A stretch of 64,000 nt of DNA from Patescibacteria group bacterium. Lineage in GTDB: Bacteria; Patescibacteriota; UBA1384; XYA2-FULL-43-10. The position numbers were made by a program, and so were the translations under genes. This document shows positions 1 to 50,710 of the stretch, piece by piece (positions within the stretch are counted from its first letter, which is position 1; each line of letters opens with the position of its first letter). The notes beneath the pieces were generated by a model, which was not told the DNA's origin, did no database searches, and saw nothing but the letters and a program-made list of their open reading frames with translations. The DNA is taken from the NCBI GenBank assembly GCA_041674405.1, contig JBAYVT010000002.1, positions 23,158 through 87,157 on the forward strand, written 5' to 3'.

Positions 1-299
1 ACATTCCATGGGCGCACAAGCATGTTTGTAAAAAAACCATTCCAGATATCTTCTCCCAGATACAAAGAATCTGTTACCTCTATCCGGTAAATAAATGAGG
101 TAATCAAATAATAGGTGACCGTGCTTTTTAGTGAATAGCTCGCAATTTCGGCAGTCCCGGCAGTTGCATAAACCGATTTCCAAACAAGAAAGAAAATAAT
201 AAAAAAAACCATGTTAAAAAAGATCGACAAAGTAAAATCGGTCTTGTAGGCGGTGAAGCCTTTAAATTCAGTTAAAAAATGGAAATAATATTTCCTCAT
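1..299 (-). CDS. Partial hypothetical membrane protein (N-terminal part; continues past window start)
   Basis: Reverse-strand reading from ATG (rc of 297-299) gives MRKYYFHFLTEFKGF... with a hydrophobic segment FFNMVFFIIFFLVW, open to position 1. No family recognised. Confidence 0.3.
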   Translation of the reverse strand, partial: MRKYYFHFLTEFKGFTAYKTDFTLSIFFNMVFFIIFFLVWKSVYATAGTAEIASYSLKSTVTYYLITSFIYRIEVTDSLYLGEDIWNGFFTNMLVRPWN

Positions 300-3573: not shown

Positions 3574-5057
3574 CCAAGCCAAAAGTCATTTTAATCATTT
3601 TGGATGGGTGGGGAATCGGCGAAAAGGATGAAGATAACGCCATTCACCTCGCTAAGACTCCTAATTTCGATAAACTCTGGGAGTCTTTTTCTCATGGCAA
3701 GATAAAGACCTCCGGCGTTGCTGTTGGTTTGCCGGCAGGGCAAATGGGCAATTCCGAAGTAGGCCACCTAACTATCGGCTCCGGTAGAGTAATTGATACT
3801 GATCTTGTCAAAATTTCTAAATCGGCAGAAAGAGGAGAGTTCTCCGCAAATCACGCATTTAAATCCGTATTTGACCATGTGAAAAAGTATGATAGCATCT
3901 TACACATTCAAGGTTTGATCGGTCCAGGTGGCGTTCATTCTCATTCCAACCATTTACTTGCAATCCTCAAGGCAGCAAAAGCTACGGGCATTGAAAAAAT
4001 TGCACTCCATGCATTTACCGATGGCCGCGACACAGACGCCAAAAGTGCGAACAAATATCTAAAAGAGTTAGAAAATGCTATTGAGGAAATCGGCGTTGGC
4101 TTTATAGCTACGGCAGTCGGCCGGTTTTATGCCATGGATCGCGATGATAATTGGGATCGTTTGAAAGTTGCCGAGGATGCGATCTTCGGCGGAGTTGCAA
4201 AAACGGTTGTCCGTAAAAAACCATCCGAAATTATGGAGGAATTATATGAATCAGGCATCACCGATGAACATATCGAACCGCACATTTTTCTAGATGAAAA
4301 AGGCAATGGTTATAAAATTGGAAAAAATGACGGTGTCATATTTATTAATTTCCGCGCTGATAGAGCCAGAATGTTTTCGAAAAAAATTCTCGAAAAACAG
4401 GAGGAACTCAATCTGTTTTTTGTCACTATGACTGACTACGGCAAAGATATTGATAGCGTCATCGCTTTCCCGCCAGATAACATTGAAGATACTTTGGCCG
4501 ATATTATTTCTGAAAATAATCTTACCCAATCTCACATTGCTGAGACCGAAAAATTTGCGCATGCAACCTATTTTCTAAACGGCGGCGTCGAAGATGAACA
4601 CAAAGACGAAAAGTTTATTCTGATCGAGAGCCGCAAAGATATAAAAACCCATGACCTTGCTCCCGGCATGCGAGCTTCTGAAATTGCTGATACAACCGTC
4701 GAAGAAATTCAGAAGGGGAGAGATTTTATCTTCGTAAACTTCGCCAATCCCGACATGGTCGGCCACACAGCGGTAAAAAAAGCGGTTATTGAAGCAATTG
4801 AGACAACCGACCGAGAGCTCGGAAAACTGGTAGAGACAGCACAAGAAAAAAAGTATGAGATCGTCATATCCGCCGATCATGGAAATGCCGAAGCTCCCGA
4901 TACTGCCCACACTGTGAATCCCGTCCCCTTGATCTATATTGGCGAAAAGTATTCTAAAGTATCTAATGGCGCCCTTTCCGACATTGCGCCAACAGTTCTT
5001 CAACTTCTCGAAATCAATAAGCCCTCGCGTATGACCGGTAAGGGCTTATTGAATTAA
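3570..5057 (+). CDS. gpmI: 2,3-bisphosphoglycerate-independent phosphoglycerate mutase
   Basis: MTKPKVILIILDGWGIG...NSEVGHLTIGSGR...FANPDMVGHT...SADHGNAE are iPGM hallmarks. Confidence 0.9.
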   Translation: MTKPKVILIILDGWGIGEKDEDNAIHLAKTPNFDKLWESFSHGKIKTSGVAVGLPAGQMGNSEVGHLTIGSGRVIDTDLVKISKSAERGEFSANHAFKSVFDHVKKYDSILHIQGLIGPGGVHSHSNHLLAILKAAKATGIEKIALHAFTDGRDTDAKSANKYLKELENAIEEIGVGFIATAVGRFYAMDRDDNWDRLKVAEDAIFGGVAKTVVRKKPSEIMEELYESGITDEHIEPHIFLDEKGNGYKIGKNDGVIFINFRADRARMFSKKILEKQEELNLFFVTMTDYGKDIDSVIAFPPDNIEDTLADIISENNLTQSHIAETEKFAHATYFLNGGVEDEHKDEKFILIESRKDIKTHDLAPGMRASEIADTTVEEIQKGRDFIFVNFANPDMVGHTAVKKAVIEAIETTDRELGKLVETAQEKKYEIVISADHGNAEAPDTAHTVNPVPLIYIGEKYSKVSNGALSDIAPTVLQLLEINKPSRMTGKGLLN

Positions 5058-15961: not shown

Positions 15962-16114
15962 TTATCCGGGCCAGTTGGCCGGATCGTTGTCGGGGTCGTA
16001 GGTGACTGGCTTAGCCCGTTTGCGGGCATCATTCAGGATGATCAACAGGTCGGCAAACGGCACATCGGGTACTGAGTCCGAAGCTACCTGGTAATCGCCG
16101 GCATAACCACACAT
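15962..16114 (-). CDS. Small GC-rich ORF (50 aa) MCGYAGDYQVASDSVPDVPFADLLIILNDARKRAKPVTYDPDNDPANWPG
   Basis: Manual translation. GGAGGT SD sits 6 nt upstream. Local GC is about 58%, against about 38% in the flanks. A perfect hairpin follows it. Confidence 0.25.
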   Translation of the reverse strand: MCGYAGDYQVASDSVPDVPFADLLIILNDARKRAKPVTYDPDNDPANWPG

Positions 16115-16167: not shown

Positions 16168-17172
16168 TCAATATACGCTATATCCACCAAATTTTTTTAA
16201 TTCAGAAAGCAGAAGCTTTTTATTGCTTTTATCACCGCAGAAAAGCAAACATCCTCCTCCCCCAGCACCACAAGCACGGTGGGAATATCCGTATTTTTCC
16301 GCAATTTTAGCCATCATTTTCATGTTTTTTGTATAATATGCACTTGATAGATCTAGGCGCAAATTCCTATCATTGGCGATTCCTGTTTTGAGCATAGATA
16401 GGTCTTTCCCCAAGATCCCTCGCCAAATATCTTCCGCATTTTTGGCAATCTTCTTAATTAATAATGGATTTTTTTCATATCCAGATCTCATTTGAGAGTT
16501 TAGTTTTCCTGATGATCTCGATTCACCGCTGTAATATACCAGAATATGATTCAACACCCAGTTATATAACGGAGAGTTTTCTTCTCTATGGTCAATCATC
16601 TTCGCTTCTCCATATCCAGGACCACCAAAAGTCATGTAGTTCATTCCTCCGTGCCACGCAGCATAATAATCTTGCTTGCCTCCTAAAATTCCCATCGACA
16701 TTTCAACCAAATAGTTCAATTCGGGAACATTTACACCGGGAATTTCATAAAGTTCGGAAAGTGCCATGATCACTCCAACCCCTACCGCCGAAGAAGTGCC
16801 TAGGCCAGAAGCAGACGGAATGATGCCAACACTGGTAACTTTTATTTCCAATCCATCCGGCTTTAGGTTAAATAACGAAATAAAATGTCGGACAATCTGG
16901 CTAACATTATTTTTTTCTTGTTTGATAAGATCTTCAATACTCCCTTCGATTTTCTCGCCCAAATCAGGAAGTTCGAGTTTAATACCCTTGCCGCCATTCA
17001 GTTTCGCTTCAACTTTGACTTGTACCGGTAAGGCAATATTTACAACCGAGCCACGATCCGCTTTAAGTTTCTTAAGGTAGTAGCTAATATCTGTAGAACC
17101 GCCGGCAATATCTGCACGAACTGGCACGAACAGAGTTACCCTTTTCATCATTTCCTCCTGGATTTCTTCCAT
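16168..17172 (-). CDS. GHMP-family sugar(-phosphate) kinase
   Basis: PSASGLGTSSAVGVGV (GHMP motif II) and a C-terminal GAGGGG motif. Confidence 0.7.
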   Translation of the reverse strand: MEEIQEEMMKRVTLFVPVRADIAGGSTDISYYLKKLKADRGSVVNIALPVQVKVEAKLNGGKGIKLELPDLGEKIEGSIEDLIKQEKNNVSQIVRHFISLFNLKPDGLEIKVTSVGIIPSASGLGTSSAVGVGVIMALSELYEIPGVNVPELNYLVEMSMGILGGKQDYYAAWHGGMNYMTFGGPGYGEAKMIDHREENSPLYNWVLNHILVYYSGESRSSGKLNSQMRSGYEKNPLLIKKIAKNAEDIWRGILGKDLSMLKTGIANDRNLRLDLSSAYYTKNMKMMAKIAEKYGYSHRACGAGGGGCLLFCGDKSNKKLLLSELKKFGGYSVY

Positions 17173-17999
17173 TCCTTAATCGCCTTTTCGTATGATTCAT
17201 AGGTACCCGTATCAAGCCACTGGCTAAAGAAGGGGTAACCAAATAATTTCCCCTCCTCCGCCAACTTTGGATATATGTCATATTCAACCATTGCCTTCCC
17301 CTTTTGGGGAACATATTTATCGATCACTTCTGGTTCCATTATAGCCATACCCGCATTAGCAAGATTACTTGGTGCTTCTGATCTCTTTGGTTTTTCGACA
17401 AAACCGGTTATTCGGCTGCCGGTAAGTGATGCAACCCCAAAACGGCTCGGGTCCTCAACCGGTGTGAGTGCAATTGTAGCTAATCCTTCATTATTTCGAT
17501 GAAAATGCATAAAATCCGAAAGATCAATTTCCGAAAGCACATCCCCCCAAACAATAAAGAAGGTTTCATTTAGAAATTTTTTTGCCAATCGCAATGGTCC
17601 TGCTGTTCCTAGTGGGGATCTTTCTTCAACATAATTTATCCTGACGCCAAATTTTGTGCCATCTTTGAAGTAATCCTTGATCATCTCCCCCTTATAACCC
17701 AATGCCAGACAGATTTCGGTAACACCATGTGAGCGCAGAAGGTCTATCACATGTTCCACCATTGGCTTTCCAGCAACTGGCAAAAGCGCCTTTGGTAATT
17801 CATAAGTAAATGGCCGAAGCCTTGTCCCCTCGCCCCCAACGAGAAGAATTGCTTTTTTGATTTGGTTTATGCCAAGGCCATTTTCGATAAGATATTCTGT
17901 CGCATGCGATCGATTTCTGATTTTTTTACCATCGATTATTGCATCAATCTTTGAAAATAGGTCTTTTTTAATGGTGACGGTTAACTTTTCTCGTTCCAT
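17148..17999 (-). CDS. Sugar-1-phosphate nucleotidyltransferase with an N-terminal RHH-like extension
   Basis: Activator loop LLVGGEGTRLRPFT...LLPVAGKPM sits at residues about 53-75 instead of about 5-25. The preceding LTVTIKKDLFSKIDAIIDGKKIRNRSHATEYLIENGL resembles a ribbon-helix-helix. Confidence 0.7.
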   Translation of the reverse strand: MEREKLTVTIKKDLFSKIDAIIDGKKIRNRSHATEYLIENGLGINQIKKAILLVGGEGTRLRPFTYELPKALLPVAGKPMVEHVIDLLRSHGVTEICLALGYKGEMIKDYFKDGTKFGVRINYVEERSPLGTAGPLRLAKKFLNETFFIVWGDVLSEIDLSDFMHFHRNNEGLATIALTPVEDPSRFGVASLTGSRITGFVEKPKRSEAPSNLANAGMAIMEPEVIDKYVPQKGKAMVEYDIYPKLAEEGKLFGYPFFSQWLDTGTYESYEKAIKEWKKSRRK

Positions 18000-18071
18000 A
18001 GAACTCCTTAAAAATTATTCATATACGATAATATACGATATATAAAAATAGATCAAATTGATTGAAATAGC

Positions 18072-18461
18072 TTAGTCCGACATGATTACCCAGGGTCGCC
18101 GATCCTGTTTCTTGTATTTAACGCAGGCAACAAAACGTTCAGGATCTTTCAAAAATATCAGAGAAACAAAATTTGCTTTTTTCTTTTCTTCCCAAAATTT
18201 TTCATCGACACATAAGTCATCAGAATACATTTTACGAAATTCCGAAAGACCTTTCGATCCAAAATTTTCGTAATACAAAACATTATCTACAAAAACTCGT
18301 CCAACAATACCGCCACCTGATTTTTTAAGATAAATTTCATCTTCTTTTGCAACAGATCCGTAAGGGGCAATTTTATGAATTGAAAATCGTGACTCGATTG
18401 TTTTTTTTCCAACCAGGATATTTTCTATAGCATCACCAACAAAAATCGCTAAATGCCTCAT
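18072..18461 (-). CDS. Small PUA/ASCH-like domain protein (hypothetical)
   Basis: 129 aa. The weak resemblance to ASCH beta-barrel proteins is low-confidence. Confidence 0.3.
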   Translation of the reverse strand: MRHLAIFVGDAIENILVGKKTIESRFSIHKIAPYGSVAKEDEIYLKKSGGGIVGRVFVDNVLYYENFGSKGLSEFRKMYSDDLCVDEKFWEEKKKANFVSLIFLKDPERFVACVKYKKQDRRPWVIMSD

Positions 18462-18556: not shown

Positions 18557-19570
18557 TTAATAAATCTCGACAACCATGCGTGGATTTTCAGCTACTTGCG
18601 CCTCAAGCTCCGATTTGGGCAACAACCCCCCTTGTGCTCCAATTATTCTGACAACGGAAGTAGAATTTACTATACCTGCTTTGAGTGCTTCAGATATCTT
18701 GTATTGATCGGAAAAATCCGCGTCTTTTGAATCTAAAAATTTCGCAACAAAAGCTGATGCAAAACTATCACCCGCTCCAGTCGCATCCACTCTTTCTCGA
18801 TTCATTGCTTCGATTCGATATGACCGAACCCCATCAAATGCGTAAGCGCCTTCTTTTCCATCGGTTACGATAATTATTCTTGGCCCAAGAGCATGAAGCG
18901 ATTTGGCAATTTCTTCAACCCGCGGCCGCACAGGATAATTGGAAAATTTTATTGCTTCTTCACGATTCAAAATCAATATCGAAACACATTTTAATAATGC
19001 CCTGTATTTCGAAACACCCTTTTCGATTTGCAAAGAACCAGGATTCCATGCAATTTTTGTTCCCTTCTCAGAAGCCATAGATATTAGATCCTTTTCAACT
19101 TCTTCGGTGTTTTCCCCCATCGGGCAAACAAAAAACCATTTAGTTTTTAAATTTTTTTTAGGCTTCAGCACTGAGTAATCTGAAACCCCGTGGCAAACAA
19201 AAATTGTTCTTTCGTCCCCAAGATTAAAAATGATTGAAAAATTTGTTTGGACATCATGTTTTTTAATGACCTGCGCTTCGTCTACACCCTCAATCCTAAG
19301 CCTTTCCAGTATTTTTTCAGAAGGAGAATCGTCTCCAATAGCAGTAATAATTGCAGTGTTATATCCAAGGCGATTGAACGAAACAGCAGTGTTGCATGCT
19401 GAACCGCCAATATCATAAAATGCATGTTCTAAAGAAATTTTTTCCCCCAGTTCAAAAGAAACAGATTTGCCCGAGGCATATCTCCGGCTGCTTTCAATAT
19501 CAAAAGTATGAGGCTTAACAAAAATATCCTCTGAAGCATCCCCAATTGTGACAATATCATACTTTGTCAT
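18557..19570 (-). CDS. PfkB/ribokinase-family carbohydrate kinase
   Basis: C-terminal DATGAGDSFASAFV (PfkB signature 2) and an N-terminal GG motif. Confidence 0.75.
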   Translation of the reverse strand: MTKYDIVTIGDASEDIFVKPHTFDIESSRRYASGKSVSFELGEKISLEHAFYDIGGSACNTAVSFNRLGYNTAIITAIGDDSPSEKILERLRIEGVDEAQVIKKHDVQTNFSIIFNLGDERTIFVCHGVSDYSVLKPKKNLKTKWFFVCPMGENTEEVEKDLISMASEKGTKIAWNPGSLQIEKGVSKYRALLKCVSILILNREEAIKFSNYPVRPRVEEIAKSLHALGPRIIIVTDGKEGAYAFDGVRSYRIEAMNRERVDATGAGDSFASAFVAKFLDSKDADFSDQYKISEALKAGIVNSTSVVRIIGAQGGLLPKSELEAQVAENPRMVVEIY

Positions 19571-20412
19571 ACTTTTGCTTTATTTCTTGAACCAAATAAT
19601 GTTATGTAATCACAGACTAATTTTTCAATATCAGCCTTCACTTCATTGAAGACATCTCTTGGATCATCGCTGATATCGATATTCTTTGAGGCGCTGGACA
19701 AGAACGCCTTGCGTATTTTGGTATCAATATTAAATTTGACCGCACCCGCTGCTATAGCAGCTTTTATGTCCTTCTGTGAAAGGCCCGATGCACCATGGAT
19801 CACAATTGGAACAGAACTAGCATGGGCGATTTTTGACAAAAGTGAAATATCTAACTTTTCACCCCTCGGTGCACCATGTTCATTGCCTACAGAAACTGCT
19901 AATGAAGTAATCCCGGTTCGATTAATAAAATCACTAGCTAAATCAGGATGGGTATATGAACTTTTGTTCGATAATTCTCCACCCTCTTCGCGCGAAATTA
20001 CACCCAGTTCCGCTTCCACATCTACATCAAATTCTTTCGCATACGAAACAACTTTTTTAGTTAAAGCGATATTTGATTCATATGGCAGTTTTGAAGCATC
20101 AATCATTACAGAATTATATCCGATATCGATGCACTCCTTGACTATTCCAAAATCACGCGCATGATCAAGGTGAATTGCGGCAAAAACATCTTGGCTGTCC
20201 AGTTCGCTTTTTATTATTCCAAATAGTTCAGGAAGCCCGGCATAATCGATTGCGCTTGGCGTAGTCTGAATAATTACTGGTGAATTCATTTTTTTTGCAG
20301 CAGCTACGACTACTTGTACTGTTTCGAGATTATATACATTAAAAGCACCTATGGCATAGCCATCGTTTTTGGCTCCTTGATATGCTTCTTTGAGATTTAA
20401 TAATGGCATCAA
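19567..20412 (-). CDS. fba: Class II fructose-bisphosphate aldolase
   Basis: PVIIQTTPSAIDYAG...HLDHARDFGIVKECIDIGYNSVMIDAS...HGASG. Confidence 0.85.
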   Translation of the reverse strand: MMPLLNLKEAYQGAKNDGYAIGAFNVYNLETVQVVVAAAKKMNSPVIIQTTPSAIDYAGLPELFGIIKSELDSQDVFAAIHLDHARDFGIVKECIDIGYNSVMIDASKLPYESNIALTKKVVSYAKEFDVDVEAELGVISREEGGELSNKSSYTHPDLASDFINRTGITSLAVSVGNEHGAPRGEKLDISLLSKIAHASSVPIVIHGASGLSQKDIKAAIAAGAVKFNIDTKIRKAFLSSASKNIDISDDPRDVFNEVKADIEKLVCDYITLFGSRNKAKV

Positions 20413-47874: not shown

Positions 47875-49254
47875 TTAAATCCTCTGGCAATCAAAAACAA
47901 CAGGATATTTATTATCAAAACAAGCTGAACAAAATCCTGTATTACCAGAAGCTCGATGTAGCCCATCTAGGCTCAAATAATGCACTCCCTCTACTCCGAG
48001 GTATTTTTCCAGTGCCGGCAAATCAAGTTTGGAGGCAATTAATTCCTCTTCTTTTGCCATATCAATGCCATAGTAACACGGGTGTTTTACTGGTGGGCTC
48101 GCTACAATTATTCGGATTTCCTTTGCACCGGCTTCGCGTACCATTTTTACGATTTCCTTAGATGTCGAGCCACGAACAATAGAATCATCAACCAGGCCAA
48201 CTCGCTTGCCATTGATTAATTTTTTTAACACATTTAATTTCAAACGTACTCCCGAGATCCTGACTGAACTTGAAGGATCAATAAAAAGACGTTTTGCTTG
48301 GGGTGTTTTAATGATTCCCCTGCCATATGAGACACCCGAGGCGCTGTGAAATCCAATTGCCGATGCGATTCCTGAGTCTGGAATTGGAACAATAATATCT
48401 AGCTTCTTTTTTAATATCTGATTTTCTTCAAATAAAATTTTCCCTAATTTATGGCGAAACATTTCATTCGGAGTACCGTTCAAAATACTATCCGGCCTTG
48501 ATAAATATATTTTCTCAAAAACACAAAAACTAACCTTACTTCCTCCATGCAAATATTTACTGGATATTATCTTTCCACTGGAGAAAACTAGCATAGTGCC
48601 CGCCCCAACCTCCTTTATATTTTTTGCACCCATTTGATCCAGAGCACAAGTTTCAGAAGCAAGCATAAAAATAGTTTCTTCGTTAGTTTTTGCCCTCCCA
48701 TAAAAAAGAGGCCTGATTCCTTTCGGATCACGTACAGCGATTAATTTTTTAGCGGTTAAAACAAGAAGAGAAAAGGATCCACAAATTCGATTACAAGTTT
48801 CAGCGACTGCTTGTTCAATAGTTTTTTCATTTGAATGCGCAATCAACGATGCAATTAATTCTGTGTCGCTATCTCCTGATAACTTAATTCGGCGGCTTAT
48901 CATTTCTTGGCGTAATTTAGAACTATCAATATTGCCGTTATGAACAACTGAAACATGATATTTTCCTCTTTTTTCAACTGGCTGGGCATTTTCTATAACT
49001 GATCCTCCGGTTGTCGAATAACGATTTTGCCCGACTGCAATATTGCCGGTAAGCGGAGTAATAGTTTCTTGGCGAAAAATTTCGCTTACCAGTCCTTGTT
49101 TTTTGTATGTCTTGATTCTTTTGCCGTTTGATACCGAAATTCCAGCAGATTCTTGTCCCCGGCCCTGAATACTCTGAAGACCAATAACAAGAAGGCTTGC
49201 CAACATGAATGAATCCTTATTTTTTTCGGATATCGCTCCAACTATTCCACACAT
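47875..49254 (-). CDS. purF: Amidophosphoribosyltransferase
   Basis: Ntn MCGIVGAI, RGQESAGI, GLVSEIF, C-terminal PRTase loop VGLVDDSIVRGSTS. Confidence 0.8.
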   Translation of the reverse strand: MCGIVGAISEKNKDSFMLASLLVIGLQSIQGRGQESAGISVSNGKRIKTYKKQGLVSEIFRQETITPLTGNIAVGQNRYSTTGGSVIENAQPVEKRGKYHVSVVHNGNIDSSKLRQEMISRRIKLSGDSDTELIASLIAHSNEKTIEQAVAETCNRICGSFSLLVLTAKKLIAVRDPKGIRPLFYGRAKTNEETIFMLASETCALDQMGAKNIKEVGAGTMLVFSSGKIISSKYLHGGSKVSFCVFEKIYLSRPDSILNGTPNEMFRHKLGKILFEENQILKKKLDIIVPIPDSGIASAIGFHSASGVSYGRGIIKTPQAKRLFIDPSSSVRISGVRLKLNVLKKLINGKRVGLVDDSIVRGSTSKEIVKMVREAGAKEIRIIVASPPVKHPCYYGIDMAKEEELIASKLDLPALEKYLGVEGVHYLSLDGLHRASGNTGFCSACFDNKYPVVFDCQRI

Positions 49255-49436: not shown

Positions 49437-49465
49437 TTGACAAAACTACCCTTATGTTATAATAT
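49437..49465 (+). promoter_or_regulatory. Strong sigma70-like promoter (TTGACA, 15-17 nt, TATAAT/TAATAT) upstream of the GC-rich ORF
   Basis: Read directly from the sequence. AT-rich, host-like. Confidence 0.5.
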
Positions 49466-49508
49466 TCCAAGTTGGACTCATACACCGACATACAGGCTAC
49501 AGGAGGAG

Positions 49509-50102
49509 ATGTTCGTGATCGACAAAGTTAGAGAGTTCAAACCATGGGAGAAGCCGAGGGCTGACGGGAAGCACAGCATCAGCTTCTTGATCGGGTTTCG
49601 TGCCGTACTTGCGATCCCGATCCAGCACTATGACGCCGTTCTCGGCGGTCTCTACTGCGTCGCCGTCCTCCTGCTTAGAGAGGATGGGGACCATGAGATC
49701 AGAGACCGGTCGAGCGGGCTCTTGGAAATCTTGGCAGGCCGAGAACAGGATAACCTGCCACTTTCCGATCCGGCCAAGCTCGAGATGTTGGTCGGGGTCC
49801 TGTCTTCGATCTCATCCAACTCGACCGCCTACCGGCTGTACAGGAACACGGCAACCCGCAGGGTCGTGATCGTCCGCGAGGAAGGCGAAATCGGCGAAGG
49901 GGCTACAGAGAAACCTGAGAAAAGACCAGCAGGCATCGCTGCCTGGTCCGTCGAAAGGTTCAATGAATGTCTCGCTCGTGGCCACCACCGGTTCGAGGGA
50001 CGCATTCTGGTGAACAACCGAGGGGGCCAGCCTTACGAGCTGATGGTGTGCACTGACTGCAGAGTCACGATCGCAGCGATGCAAGTGATCCCGGGCAAAT
50101 AG
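49509..50102 (+). CDS. GC-rich hypothetical protein 1 (about 197 aa), unrecognised family
   Basis: AGGAGG 8 nt before an in-frame GTG (2 nt before ATG). GC3 about 70%, with a normal-looking amino-acid composition. Alternative frames give S/R/P-rich junk. A hairpin follows the stop. Confidence 0.4.
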   Translation: MFVIDKVREFKPWEKPRADGKHSISFLIGFRAVLAIPIQHYDAVLGGLYCVAVLLLREDGDHEIRDRSSGLLEILAGREQDNLPLSDPAKLEMLVGVLSSISSNSTAYRLYRNTATRRVVIVREEGEIGEGATEKPEKRPAGIAAWSVERFNECLARGHHRFEGRILVNNRGGQPYELMVCTDCRVTIAAMQVIPGK

Positions 50103-50129
50103 CCCAAGAAGGAGGATAGAGCCGAGCGG

Positions 50130-50160
50130 CCCCGATTCAATTCGGGGTCGTTCTGCGTTT
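50130..50160 (+). terminator. Hairpin CCCCGA-ttcaat-TCGGGG followed by a T-containing tail, between the two GC-rich ORFs
   Basis: Read directly from the sequence. Confidence 0.3.
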
Positions 50161-50237
50161 TATCCACAGCAATATTTTTGACAGCGGTATATATCAAGTG
50201 GTAAGTCTAAAATAGATCGTATTACTTCCGCATCGGG

Positions 50238-50639
50238 GTGATTTTGATGGGAAGTTCGTCAGGTCGGCGTCGACGCCCGTCTTCGGTATGGAAGCAAGCA
50301 TACCGCGCGAATGGTAAAGCTCACAAGCTCACCAAGTCGGGCGAAGACGAGAAGGCTGCCGAGGCGTTTTACCAGAAGGTAGGCTGTGTCTGCGAGACAT
50401 CGCTTACCCCAGGCTTTACGCAATGGCAATGGGATCCTGTCGTAGAAGCCGTCTCGGTATCTCTAGCACACCCGCCGAAGAAAGAACGGCACAAGCGACT
50501 CCATGTTCCTCCAGACGTACTGGAGGAATACATCAGAGGGAACGGCTTTTCAAGCCGCGAAAGGAACTTCCTTCTGAAGCGCCTTCGGCAAGTACTTCGG
50601 TACCGAGAGAAAGGCGCTCCCCAACCTTACGTTCGGTAG
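50238..50639 (+). CDS. GC-rich hypothetical protein 2 (about 130 aa, basic, Arg-rich N-terminus)
   Basis: Preceded by an AT-rich promoter-like segment (TTGACA at about 50178). High GC3. No family recognised. Confidence 0.35.
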   Translation: MILMGSSSGRRRRPSSVWKQAYRANGKAHKLTKSGEDEKAAEAFYQKVGCVCETSLTPGFTQWQWDPVVEAVSVSLAHPPKKERHKRLHVPPDVLEEYIRGNGFSSRERNFLLKRLRQVLRYREKGAPQPYVR

Positions 50640-50671
50640 GCAACCCTACTCTATCAACCCCGCAGTAACCT

Positions 50672-50710
50672 CGCGCGGGCCATCCGTGGCTCGCGCGTTC
50701 CCCGTTTTTT
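50672..50710. terminator. Rho-independent terminator CGCGCGGGCC-atccgt-GGCTCGCGCG then TTCCCCGTTTTTT (bidirectional; also follows ligA)
   Basis: 10-bp GC stem with one mismatch, then a T run. Confidence 0.7.

Follow-up and report, generated by a model that had tools for sequence, protein, structure and literature searches.

A ribbon-helix-helix domain fused to a sugar-1-phosphate nucleotidyltransferase in Patescibacteria and archaea: a candidate trigger enzyme with a predicted tandem operator

NadR and BirA carry an N-terminal DNA-binding domain on a metabolite-adenylylating enzyme, and their repression is coupled to the ligand state. PutA is switched by flavin reduction together with membrane binding and uses an operator of the GTTGCA type. 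This trifunctional protein begins with a ribbon-helix-helix (RHH) domain and acts as an autogenous repressor (PMC5293562). The site of E. coli NikR, a further RHH protein, is GTATGA-N16-TCATAC, in which GTATGA is the half-site (PMC7055735). Here we analyze a 64,000-nucleotide stretch of DNA from a Patescibacteria group bacterium (assembly GCA_041674405.1, contig JBAYVT010000002.1, positions 23,158–87,157; hereafter the window), which encodes an RHH domain fused to a sugar-1-phosphate nucleotidyltransferase. We propose, with a probability of roughly 0.7, that this protein is a bifunctional trigger enzyme, both a nucleotidyltransferase and a sequence-specific DNA-binding autorepressor. Our literature searches returned no description of an RHH domain joined to a sugar-1-phosphate nucleotidyltransferase, of its operator, or of its spread through the Candidate Phyla Radiation (CPR) and DPANN. 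The first-pass annotation of this DNA had called a transcription-factor domain on a metabolic enzyme unusual; PutA is an RHH precedent (PMC5293562), and it is the combination with a sugar nucleotidyltransferase for which we found no description, a new entry on the short list of trigger enzymes.

The fusion protein shares the logic of PutA (E. coli, Salmonella, Pseudomonas), with the RHH domain first in the domain order. In PutA, however, the enzyme is a proline dehydrogenase plus P5C dehydrogenase rather than a nucleotidyltransferase, and the sequences showed no relationship outside the RHH fold, the PDB match being NikR and not PutA. NikR is the closest solved RHH protein by sequence and shares the R/K-x-T-x-T strand, the NRS turn, and the architecture of an N-terminal RHH domain followed by a C-terminal ligand-binding oligomerization domain; its half-site GTATGA is the hexamer enriched upstream of the RHH-transferase genes (PMC7055735). 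The C-terminal domain of NikR differs in being a nickel-binding tetramerization domain and not an enzyme, and the NikR half-sites are inverted and 16 bp apart, whereas the hexamers of the RHH-transferases are mostly direct and 10 bp apart. The DNA-binding domains of NadR and BirA, in contrast, are helix-turn-helix or winged-helix, and neither the folds of these enzymes nor what they act on are related to those of sugar-1-phosphate nucleotidyltransferases. In catalytic fold and motifs the window protein matches the GDP-mannose pyrophosphorylases (ManC, GMPPB, VTC1) and RmlA, from which it differs by the extra N-terminal RHH domain and by the lack of a C-terminal β-helix.

Residues 1–48 of the window protein (MEREKLTVTIKKDLFSKIDAIIDGKKIRNRSHATEYLIENGLGINQIK) lie outside every enzyme model, and all the nucleotidyltransferase matches in the PDB start at query residues 45–50. 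A profile of 17 orthologous N-termini retrieved the RHH domain of E. coli NikR (1q5v) from the PDB with an E-value of 5.4e-5 (HMMER), followed by P. horikoshii NikR (3e-3) and the RHH antitoxin Rv0298 (0.09), with no other matches. The hhalign comparison of the family profile with the NikR RHH domain gave a probability of 96.7% and an E-value of 4e-10. Pfam RHH_1 (PF01402) is matched by 10 of the 17 orthologue N-termini (best E-value 3e-5), and more distant relatives score above its gathering cutoff of 20.5 bits. In the alignment to NikR, K5, T7 and T9 fall on R3, T5 and T7, which we take to be the base-contacting ribbon residues, and N29-R30-S31 falls on the NRS turn, presumably the helix-2 N-cap that contacts phosphate in RHH proteins. 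The strand L-T-V-T-I has T7 and T9 in alternation with hydrophobic residues. The AlphaFold2 model of the fusion protein (pLDDT 85.6, pTM 0.83) consists of an extended N-terminus, a helix at 12–21, a helix at 30–42, a short linker and a Rossmann-like body; the β-α-α topology of the domain is present, with the strand not formed in the monomer model. Judged by sequence, the identity of residues 1–45 as an RHH domain is confirmed, with a likeness well beyond chance. The RHH-type extension recognized in the first-pass annotation, which had suggested a profile comparison of the N-terminal residues, is thereby borne out.

The enzyme body is matched by Pfam NTP_transferase over residues 49–277 with an E-value of 1e-49 (169.9 bits, cutoff 21.2). 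In an alignment of 22 full-length orthologues, picked by whole-protein similarity (alignment A1), G55, G56, G58, R60, P63, K70, D153, E202, K203, P204 and D263 are invariant, and we assume that the G-loop, lysine, aspartate and EKP residues have the catalytic roles that they have in RmlA and GlmU. Foldseek placed Arabidopsis VTC1 (37% identity) and human GMPPB (33%) first and then RmlA, and the best PDB matches by sequence are 7x8j and 7d72 (E-value 1e-44, 33–38% identity). VTC1 and GMPPB are 357–360 amino acids long and align over no more than 245 columns; their C-terminal left-handed β-helix is absent from the window protein. The protein stays below the NCBIfam equivalog cutoffs for mannose-1-phosphate guanylyltransferase (NF052502, ManC; 181.3 versus 440 bits), RmlA_long (TIGR01208; 159.5 versus 320.25) and HddC (NF049965; 105.9 versus 300), and since it falls under every such cutoff, no substrate specificity is assigned. 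By its motifs, the body is an intact sugar-1-phosphate nucleotidyltransferase, closest to the GDP-mannose pyrophosphorylases. A 100% identical protein (P0001) is present in public metagenome-assembled genomes (MAGs), labelled 'sugar phosphate nucleotidyltransferase [Patescibacteria group bacterium]'. Public annotations of the family name only the enzyme ("sugar phosphate nucleotidyltransferase", "GlmU", "mannose-1-phosphate guanylyltransferase") and miss the DNA-binding domain entirely.

The fusion is widespread. A full-length query returned more than 100 proteins of 278–290 amino acids at 98–99% coverage, with identity down to 55%, from Patescibacteria/Berkelbacteria, Altiarchaeota and Nanoarchaeia in many assemblies. 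A scan with the RHH profile of one genome per GTDB species found the fusion in at least 268 genomes (Patescibacteria, DPANN, Altiarchaeota). A HMMER search of 1.84 billion cluster representatives matched 627 clusters at 50% identity, 185 of them at an E-value ≤ 1e-10, and the RHH domain is always N-terminal (residues 1–50) in these matches; most of the short ones (44–82 amino acids) extend into the G-loop and resemble fragments cut off at contig ends. All 80 genomic loci that were kept hold an in-frame N-terminal RHH fusion with a body of 210–290 amino acids, and none of the 80 has a separate upstream RHH gene. A stand-alone RHH orthologue was likewise sought and rejected, with none in the 80 loci; P0172, P0198 and P0209 could be genuine. 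In the window protein the first internal methionine is M80, and no in-frame GTG or TTG was found among the codons read by eye around the domain junction (residues ~39–58). The earlier statement that no internal methionine could serve as an alternative start therefore holds, with AAGGAG preceding the annotated ATG, and the orthologue comparison that had been suggested shows the extension to be conserved and in frame, with no frameshift or split RHH gene. The G-loop had been placed at about residue 54; it starts at residue 55, and its late position stands.

Within A1 the RHH domain has invariant residues of its own (D19, D23, G24, N29, R30, A33 and E35). Its mean pairwise identity is 59%, compared with 62% for the enzyme body, and 36% of the columns are at least 90% identical in both parts. 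We count this near-equal conservation as selection on the RHH domain. The G-loop is degenerate or deleted in about 16 of the 80 relatives, in which the RHH domain is retained, and in a class of ~210 amino acids Pfam recognizes RHH_1 and no nucleotidyltransferase. It appears that, in the lineages with a decayed G-loop, the RHH domain was kept as the enzyme body turned into a non-catalytic domain. Such decay into an apparent pure sensor may show the path by which an enzyme becomes a transcription factor. Two paralogues occur in one genome in two cases (loci L013 and L033; L010 and L040). Paralogues of ~210–233 amino acids with an RHH domain and a C-terminal domain that Pfam does not recognize were seen at L033, L038 and L040 and as P0136, P0160, P0173, P0175, P0183, P0205, P0218 and P0241. 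The MAGs of L033 and L040 also hold a full-length copy. An upstream element, GGTATATGCTAT, is common to L033 and L038, and L040 has AGTATATGCTAT.

The 72-nt gap between the upstream ASCH gene and the RHH-transferase gene holds ATCGTATATTATCGTATAT (18021–18039), which is unique in the window. It contains two GTATAT hexamers with a spacing of 10 bp, the second of which stops 21 nt short of the ATG. The pattern GTATRWN4GTATRW occurs three times in the window, compared with an expectation of 0.03, and the −10 hexamer of the promoter-like site TTGATC-N17-TATTAT overlaps the repeat. The upstream regions of orthologues are otherwise unalignable and have the same repeat design, as in L050 (AGTATGATAAAGTATGATAA), L042 (TGTATGATGATGTATGATAATATATGATA) and L081 (GGTATGATATAGTATGATAC); the Nanoarchaeota loci L067, L071 and L076 have an inverted arrangement (CGTATGATGAAGTGTGAA). 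Members of the window's own clade carry two to four TCGTATA units upstream. In the window (consensus scan) and in L050, L081, L064 and L072 (sequence reading), the site either overlaps a −10-like box or comes immediately after one.

The top upstream 6-mer is GTATGA/TCATAC, present in 26 of 76 non-redundant upstream regions compared with 17 of 316 other regions in the same loci (p = 2e-10). Same-strand RTATRW pairs number 24 at a spacing of 10 bp and one each at 9 and 11 bp. A tandem pair lies in 21 of the 76 upstream regions, in the orientation of the gene in 20 of these 21, and 500 dinucleotide shuffles of the regions gave 0.89 ± 0.91 such regions, with a maximum of 4. Controls that do not share the region had the pair in 3 of 294 cases, and AT-matched controls in 2 of 124. 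Of the 40 strict matches in the 605 kb of loci that were fetched, about 30 lie no more than 160 nt upstream of RHH-transferase genes. A comparison by position weight matrix (PWM) was set aside because some of its controls were the same intergenic sites taken in the direction of the divergent gene, which inflates the false-positive rate; the shuffle, spacing and reverse tests were relied on instead.

In the reverse test, the exact 17-mer GTATGATAAAGTATGAT was scanned in a metagenome collection, which yielded 122 sites in 120 loci. RHH domains of the RHH-nucleotidyltransferase type are encoded in 25 of the 120 loci; the distance is measurable in 24 of these, and in 20 of the 24 the start follows the 17-mer by 6–192 nt. 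These loci include a subclade, MKERITITLDKNLISQIDKRIDG..KNRSQEIE, that is absent from the first set. Since the fusion occurs in ~0.14% of species genomes (a rough estimate), the chance expectation is far below one such locus. The 17-mer encodes MIKYD, and the 53 of 122 sites that fall in long open frames are therefore probably coding coincidences. Tested in both directions, the repeat is associated family-wide with RHH-nucleotidyltransferase genes.

Other occurrences of the repeat were noted. The match at 19557–19572 (−), which spans the FBA stop codon together with the start codon of the PfkB kinase, was rejected as an operator: it is present at only 5 of 18 related PfkB starts and encodes M-x-K-Y-D, and the 17-mer is also found as MIKYD at the starts of unrelated open reading frames (ORFs). 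A third tandem match, GTATGTCGGTGTATGA at 49478–49493 (−), lies ~225 nt upstream of a PurF-like gene (47875–49254, −; identity judged by eye), at the edge of a GC-rich island (49437–50700; 55% GC versus 40% for the window) with odd ORFs and no Rfam match; in the whole window Rfam found one tRNA only. Triple tandem repeats at L075 (427–453) and L085 (3607–3633) stand 340–390 nt upstream of the RHH-transferase, before ORFs of 60–78 amino acids. At L054 (4882–4899), a TTGACA-N16-TATGAT promoter with the tandem motif immediately follows the RHH-transferase gene.

The hexamers were compared with the three outward strand residues. Proteins with R/T/T have GTATGA twice, those with K/T/T (the window's clade) have GTATA[AT] or GTATGT, and those with R/S/T have GTATGA plus GTATTA (4 of 4). 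In L084, an outlier with K/S/S, reading by eye shows AAAAGTAGGA twice, which places a pair of GTAGGA hexamers at a 10-bp spacing. A one-residue code, in which K5 or R5 sets base 5 of the hexamer, was rejected, as the K/A/T proteins of L050, L065 and L081 use GTATGA. In six further 17-mer loci, the gene that begins 12–45 nt after GTATGATAAAGTATGAT encodes a ParD-type RHH antitoxin whose strand is ER[VLI]TIT. An R-x-T-x-T ribbon may read GTATGA in unrelated RHH families, as in NikR. The occurrence of an R/K-x-T-x-T ribbon together with GTATGA in NikR, ParD-type antitoxins and RHH-nucleotidyltransferases hints at a transferable rule of RHH recognition. The six ParD-type loci (L092, L101, L134, L162, L170 and L180) are metagenomic, with 56–68% GC where computed.

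A catalytic domain and an RHH domain thus lie on one polypeptide (Pfam, profile, hhalign), as in a trigger enzyme, and an RHH front end with matching tandem repeats upstream would most likely switch off its own gene. In the following scheme we infer that the protein binds DNA, how it oligomerizes, that it represses and does not activate, and that ligands control it; the type of substrate is likewise inferred. Two protomers would pair their N-terminal strands with K5, T7 and T9 facing outward, forming a β-ribbon that reads one GTATAT- or GTATGA-like hexamer. Joined by the transferase bodies, a pair of RHH dimers (a tetramer) would then cover both hexamers, whose 10-bp spacing is one helical turn, in a geometry like that of Arc on its operator; the two ribbons would stand 34 Å from each other on a single face of the DNA. 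Because the site overlaps the −10-like box, binding at 18021–18039 would repress the protein's own promoter, and with it the transferase as well as the GHMP kinase described below, which is probably coupled to it in translation. NikR, PutA, BirA and NadR suggest by analogy that DNA binding is probably tuned by whether a sugar-1-phosphate, NTP or nucleoside diphosphate (NDP) sugar fills the active site; the enzyme body would serve as the ligand sensor, and transcription would follow the nucleotide-sugar or hexose-phosphate state. The autoregulation suggested in the first-pass annotation gains comparative support from a conserved tandem repeat that stands before the genes and overlaps predicted promoter elements. 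We know of few, if any, transcription factors that experiments have characterized in Patescibacteria (CPR) or DPANN, lineages that appear to encode few. The fusion protein and its repeat offer a testable pair of regulator and predicted operator that is conserved in bacteria as well as archaea and connected with the metabolism of nucleotide sugars and sugar phosphates.

The repeat also stands before genes of central carbon metabolism. The tandem GTATGA motif precedes a PfkA-type PFK (L034, ~5000–5034) and an RfaE-domain-I-like kinase (L035, 5024–5041), a divergent PGI (L056, ~3860–3880), a divergent GlpX fructose bisphosphatase (L091, L131, L175; also L116) and an archaeal-type GAPDH (L090, L199). 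These single observations suggest a regulon around fructose-6-phosphate. A wider proposal, which we regard as tentative, is that the proteins are cross-domain one-component regulators (Patescibacteria, DPANN, Altiarchaeota), in which an active or degenerate nucleotidyltransferase would sense the state of nucleotide sugars or hexose phosphates and the RHH domain on tandem GTATGA would control its own gene together with genes of the fructose-6-phosphate node (PFK, PfkB/RfaE-like kinases, PGI, GlpX and GAPDH). If true, they would govern how carbon is split between glycolysis/gluconeogenesis and the synthesis of glycan precursors.

Several points weigh against the autorepressor. The N-terminus of the window protein, searched alone as a single sequence, has no Pfam RHH match; Pfam returned only Arg_repressor (E-value 0.025) and the PDB only GLE1 (0.8), searches that are uninformative because the sequence is too short to score. 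Invariance of the RHH domain across L008–L087 would be circular, because this set was fetched with an RHH peptide pattern, and it was replaced by the A1 comparison. The covariation of the hexamer with the strand residues is suggestive and confounded by phylogeny. The hexamers in the window read GTATAT instead of GTATGA, and their score in the family PWM is only 11.4. Only about one quarter (strict test) to one half (PWM > 12) of the members have the motif within 100–160 nt, and some members sit inside operons with no promoter directly upstream. In the archaeal loci L067, L071 and L076 the site is upstream of a TATA-like box, a position that would suit an activator no less than a repressor. The repeat could also be bound by another factor, and the RHH domain could have been recruited partly as a dimerization module, the β-helix that oligomerizes GMPP-type enzymes being absent.

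Carried to its end, the last of these points makes the RHH domain a structural dimerization or oligomerization module only, which replaces the C-terminal β-helix in a protein that does not bind DNA; the repeats would then be part of the promoter or serve a different regulator. Such a module fits with the obligate dimerization of RHH domains in general, with the absence here of the C-terminal domain of VTC1 and GMPPB (357–360 amino acids) and with the many family members in which no repeat is detectable. The NRS helix-2 N-cap, presumably a phosphate contact, is nevertheless conserved in A1, and the RHH domain is retained in paralogues with a decayed enzyme body. The hexamer covaries with the strand residues, and the motif is tied to RHH-transferase genes in both search directions. 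It also equals the half-site of NikR, the nearest solved RHH protein, which has the same outward strand residues (PMC7055735). We consider a purely structural role unlikely.

Retention of the RHH domain in proteins with a degenerate or deleted G-loop (L050, L065, L081, L066, L083 and the ~210-amino-acid class) bears on a further reading, in which the protein is primarily a transcription factor, the nucleotidyltransferase fold senses a ligand without relevant catalysis, and the transferase-kinase pair is not an NDP-sugar module. The high-scoring operators at L050, L065, L081, L066 and L083 agree with it, and so do the neighbours that share the motif, which are PFK, an RfaE-like kinase, PGI, GlpX and GAPDH and not glycan genes. 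In the window's clade, however, the catalytic motifs (G-loop, K70, D153, EKP at 202–204, D263) are intact and invariant; the window gene is probably coupled translationally to a sugar kinase, and archaeal members are adjacent to phosphomannomutase/phosphoglucomutase or glycan genes. A sensor devoid of catalysis is therefore improbable for the window protein, and the bifunctional trigger enzyme remains our preferred reading. That the fusion is artificial, with misassembly, a frameshift or a misassigned start codon having joined a small separate RHH gene to the transferase, is refuted by its in-frame conservation in 80 of 80 genomic loci and in more than 100 independent full-length orthologues of 278–290 amino acids from many assemblies and sources, by the RHH domain lying always at residues 1–50 of the matches, and by the Shine-Dalgarno sequence ahead of the annotated ATG with no alternative start near residue 49; nothing was found in its favour, and its probability is negligible.

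Table 1. Features of the RHH-nucleotidyltransferase locus, in window coordinates.
Feature	Position	Strand	Basis
RHH-nucleotidyltransferase fusion coding sequence, 283 amino acids, ATG start	17148..17999	−	ORF list
Ribbon-helix-helix domain, residues 1–45	17865..17999	−	Profile, hhalign, Pfam RHH_1 in orthologues
RHH parts: strand EKLTVTI; helix 1, 12–21; turn DGKKIRNRS; helix 2, 30–42			AlphaFold2 secondary structure
Sugar-1-phosphate nucleotidyltransferase domain, residues 49–277	17169..17855	−	Pfam PF00483, 169.9 bits
Nucleotide-binding G-loop GGEGTRLRPFT, residues 55–65	17805..17837	−	Translation and alignment
Shine-Dalgarno AAGGAG, 4 nt ahead of the transferase ATG	18004..18009	−	Sequence reading
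GHMP-family sugar kinase, HddA-like	16168..17151	−	Pfam GHMP_kinases_N and GHMP_kinases_C
ASCH-domain gene, 129 amino acids, directly upstream of the RHH-transferase	18072..18461	−	Pfam ASCH, E-value 1.4e-3, under cutoff
Candidate operator, tandem direct repeat ATCGTATATT / ATCGTATAT	18021..18039	−	Unique match in window
Promoter-like site TTGATC-N17-TATTAT	18028..18056	−	Consensus scan, 9/12 matches; pattern match only
Further tandem match GTATGACAAAGTATGA across the PfkB start codon, probably a coding coincidence	19557..19572	−	

The gene that follows the transferase encodes a GHMP kinase whose longest ORF spans 16168..17172 (−) and matches GHMP_kinases_N with 38.4 bits (cutoff 22.3) and GHMP_kinases_C with 21.5 bits (cutoff 21). 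Because AGGAGG precedes the codons of M8 (17151) and M9 (17148), and the homologues at L010 and L013 start after the transferase stop, the kinase probably starts at one of these two methionines. The overlap between the two genes that the first-pass annotation had reported, with a kinase that is real by Pfam, would then be 4 or 1 nt and not 25 nt. Overlap of the kinase start codon with the TGA stop of the transferase is probably a sign of translational coupling.

Beyond the window, the kinase is adjacent to the RHH-transferase only in L010, L013, L021 and L028 (4 of 87 other loci; 5 of ~23 clade members with the window included), and the syntenic relatives L001 and L007 have no GHMP kinase. The kinase as a conserved partner of the family was therefore rejected, being adjacent in 5 of ~23 clade members and nowhere else; the transferase-kinase pairing that had been pointed out is evident in the stop/start overlap of the window and is lineage-specific. 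The earlier comparison with HddA/HddC, enzymes of the GDP-heptose pathway, fares similarly. A GHMP kinase stands beside a short nucleotidyltransferase in both cases, and the best NCBIfam match of the kinase is HddA (D-glycero-D-manno-heptose 7-phosphate kinase), with an HddA-type protein (4n3o, E-value 1e-21) as its nearest PDB entry. The resemblance holds at the level of the superfamily; both proteins are far below the equivalog cutoffs (97.7 versus 600 bits for HddA, NF049969, and 105.9 versus 300 for HddC), mannose-1-phosphate guanylyltransferase scores higher for the transferase (181 bits), and the pairing is absent from most orthologous loci.

The gene order common to the window and its Berkelbacteria-type relatives is PGK, FBA, PfkB kinase, (ASCH), RHH-transferase, trigger factor, MFS and ClpP. 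In archaeal loci, a phosphomannomutase/phosphoglucomutase gene comes next after the RHH-transferase; one other archaeal locus has an epimerase and glycosyltransferases next and a divergent polysaccharide flippase. An ASCH gene lies just upstream of the RHH-transferase in 13 related loci (L001, L008, L009, L011, L014–L016, L019, L020, L022–L024 and L026). The 329-nt gap between the kinase and trigger factor, which is relatively GC-rich, holds an ORF of 50 amino acids (15962–16114, −), which has no homologue in the fetched loci and is preceded by a strong AGGAGG Shine-Dalgarno sequence.

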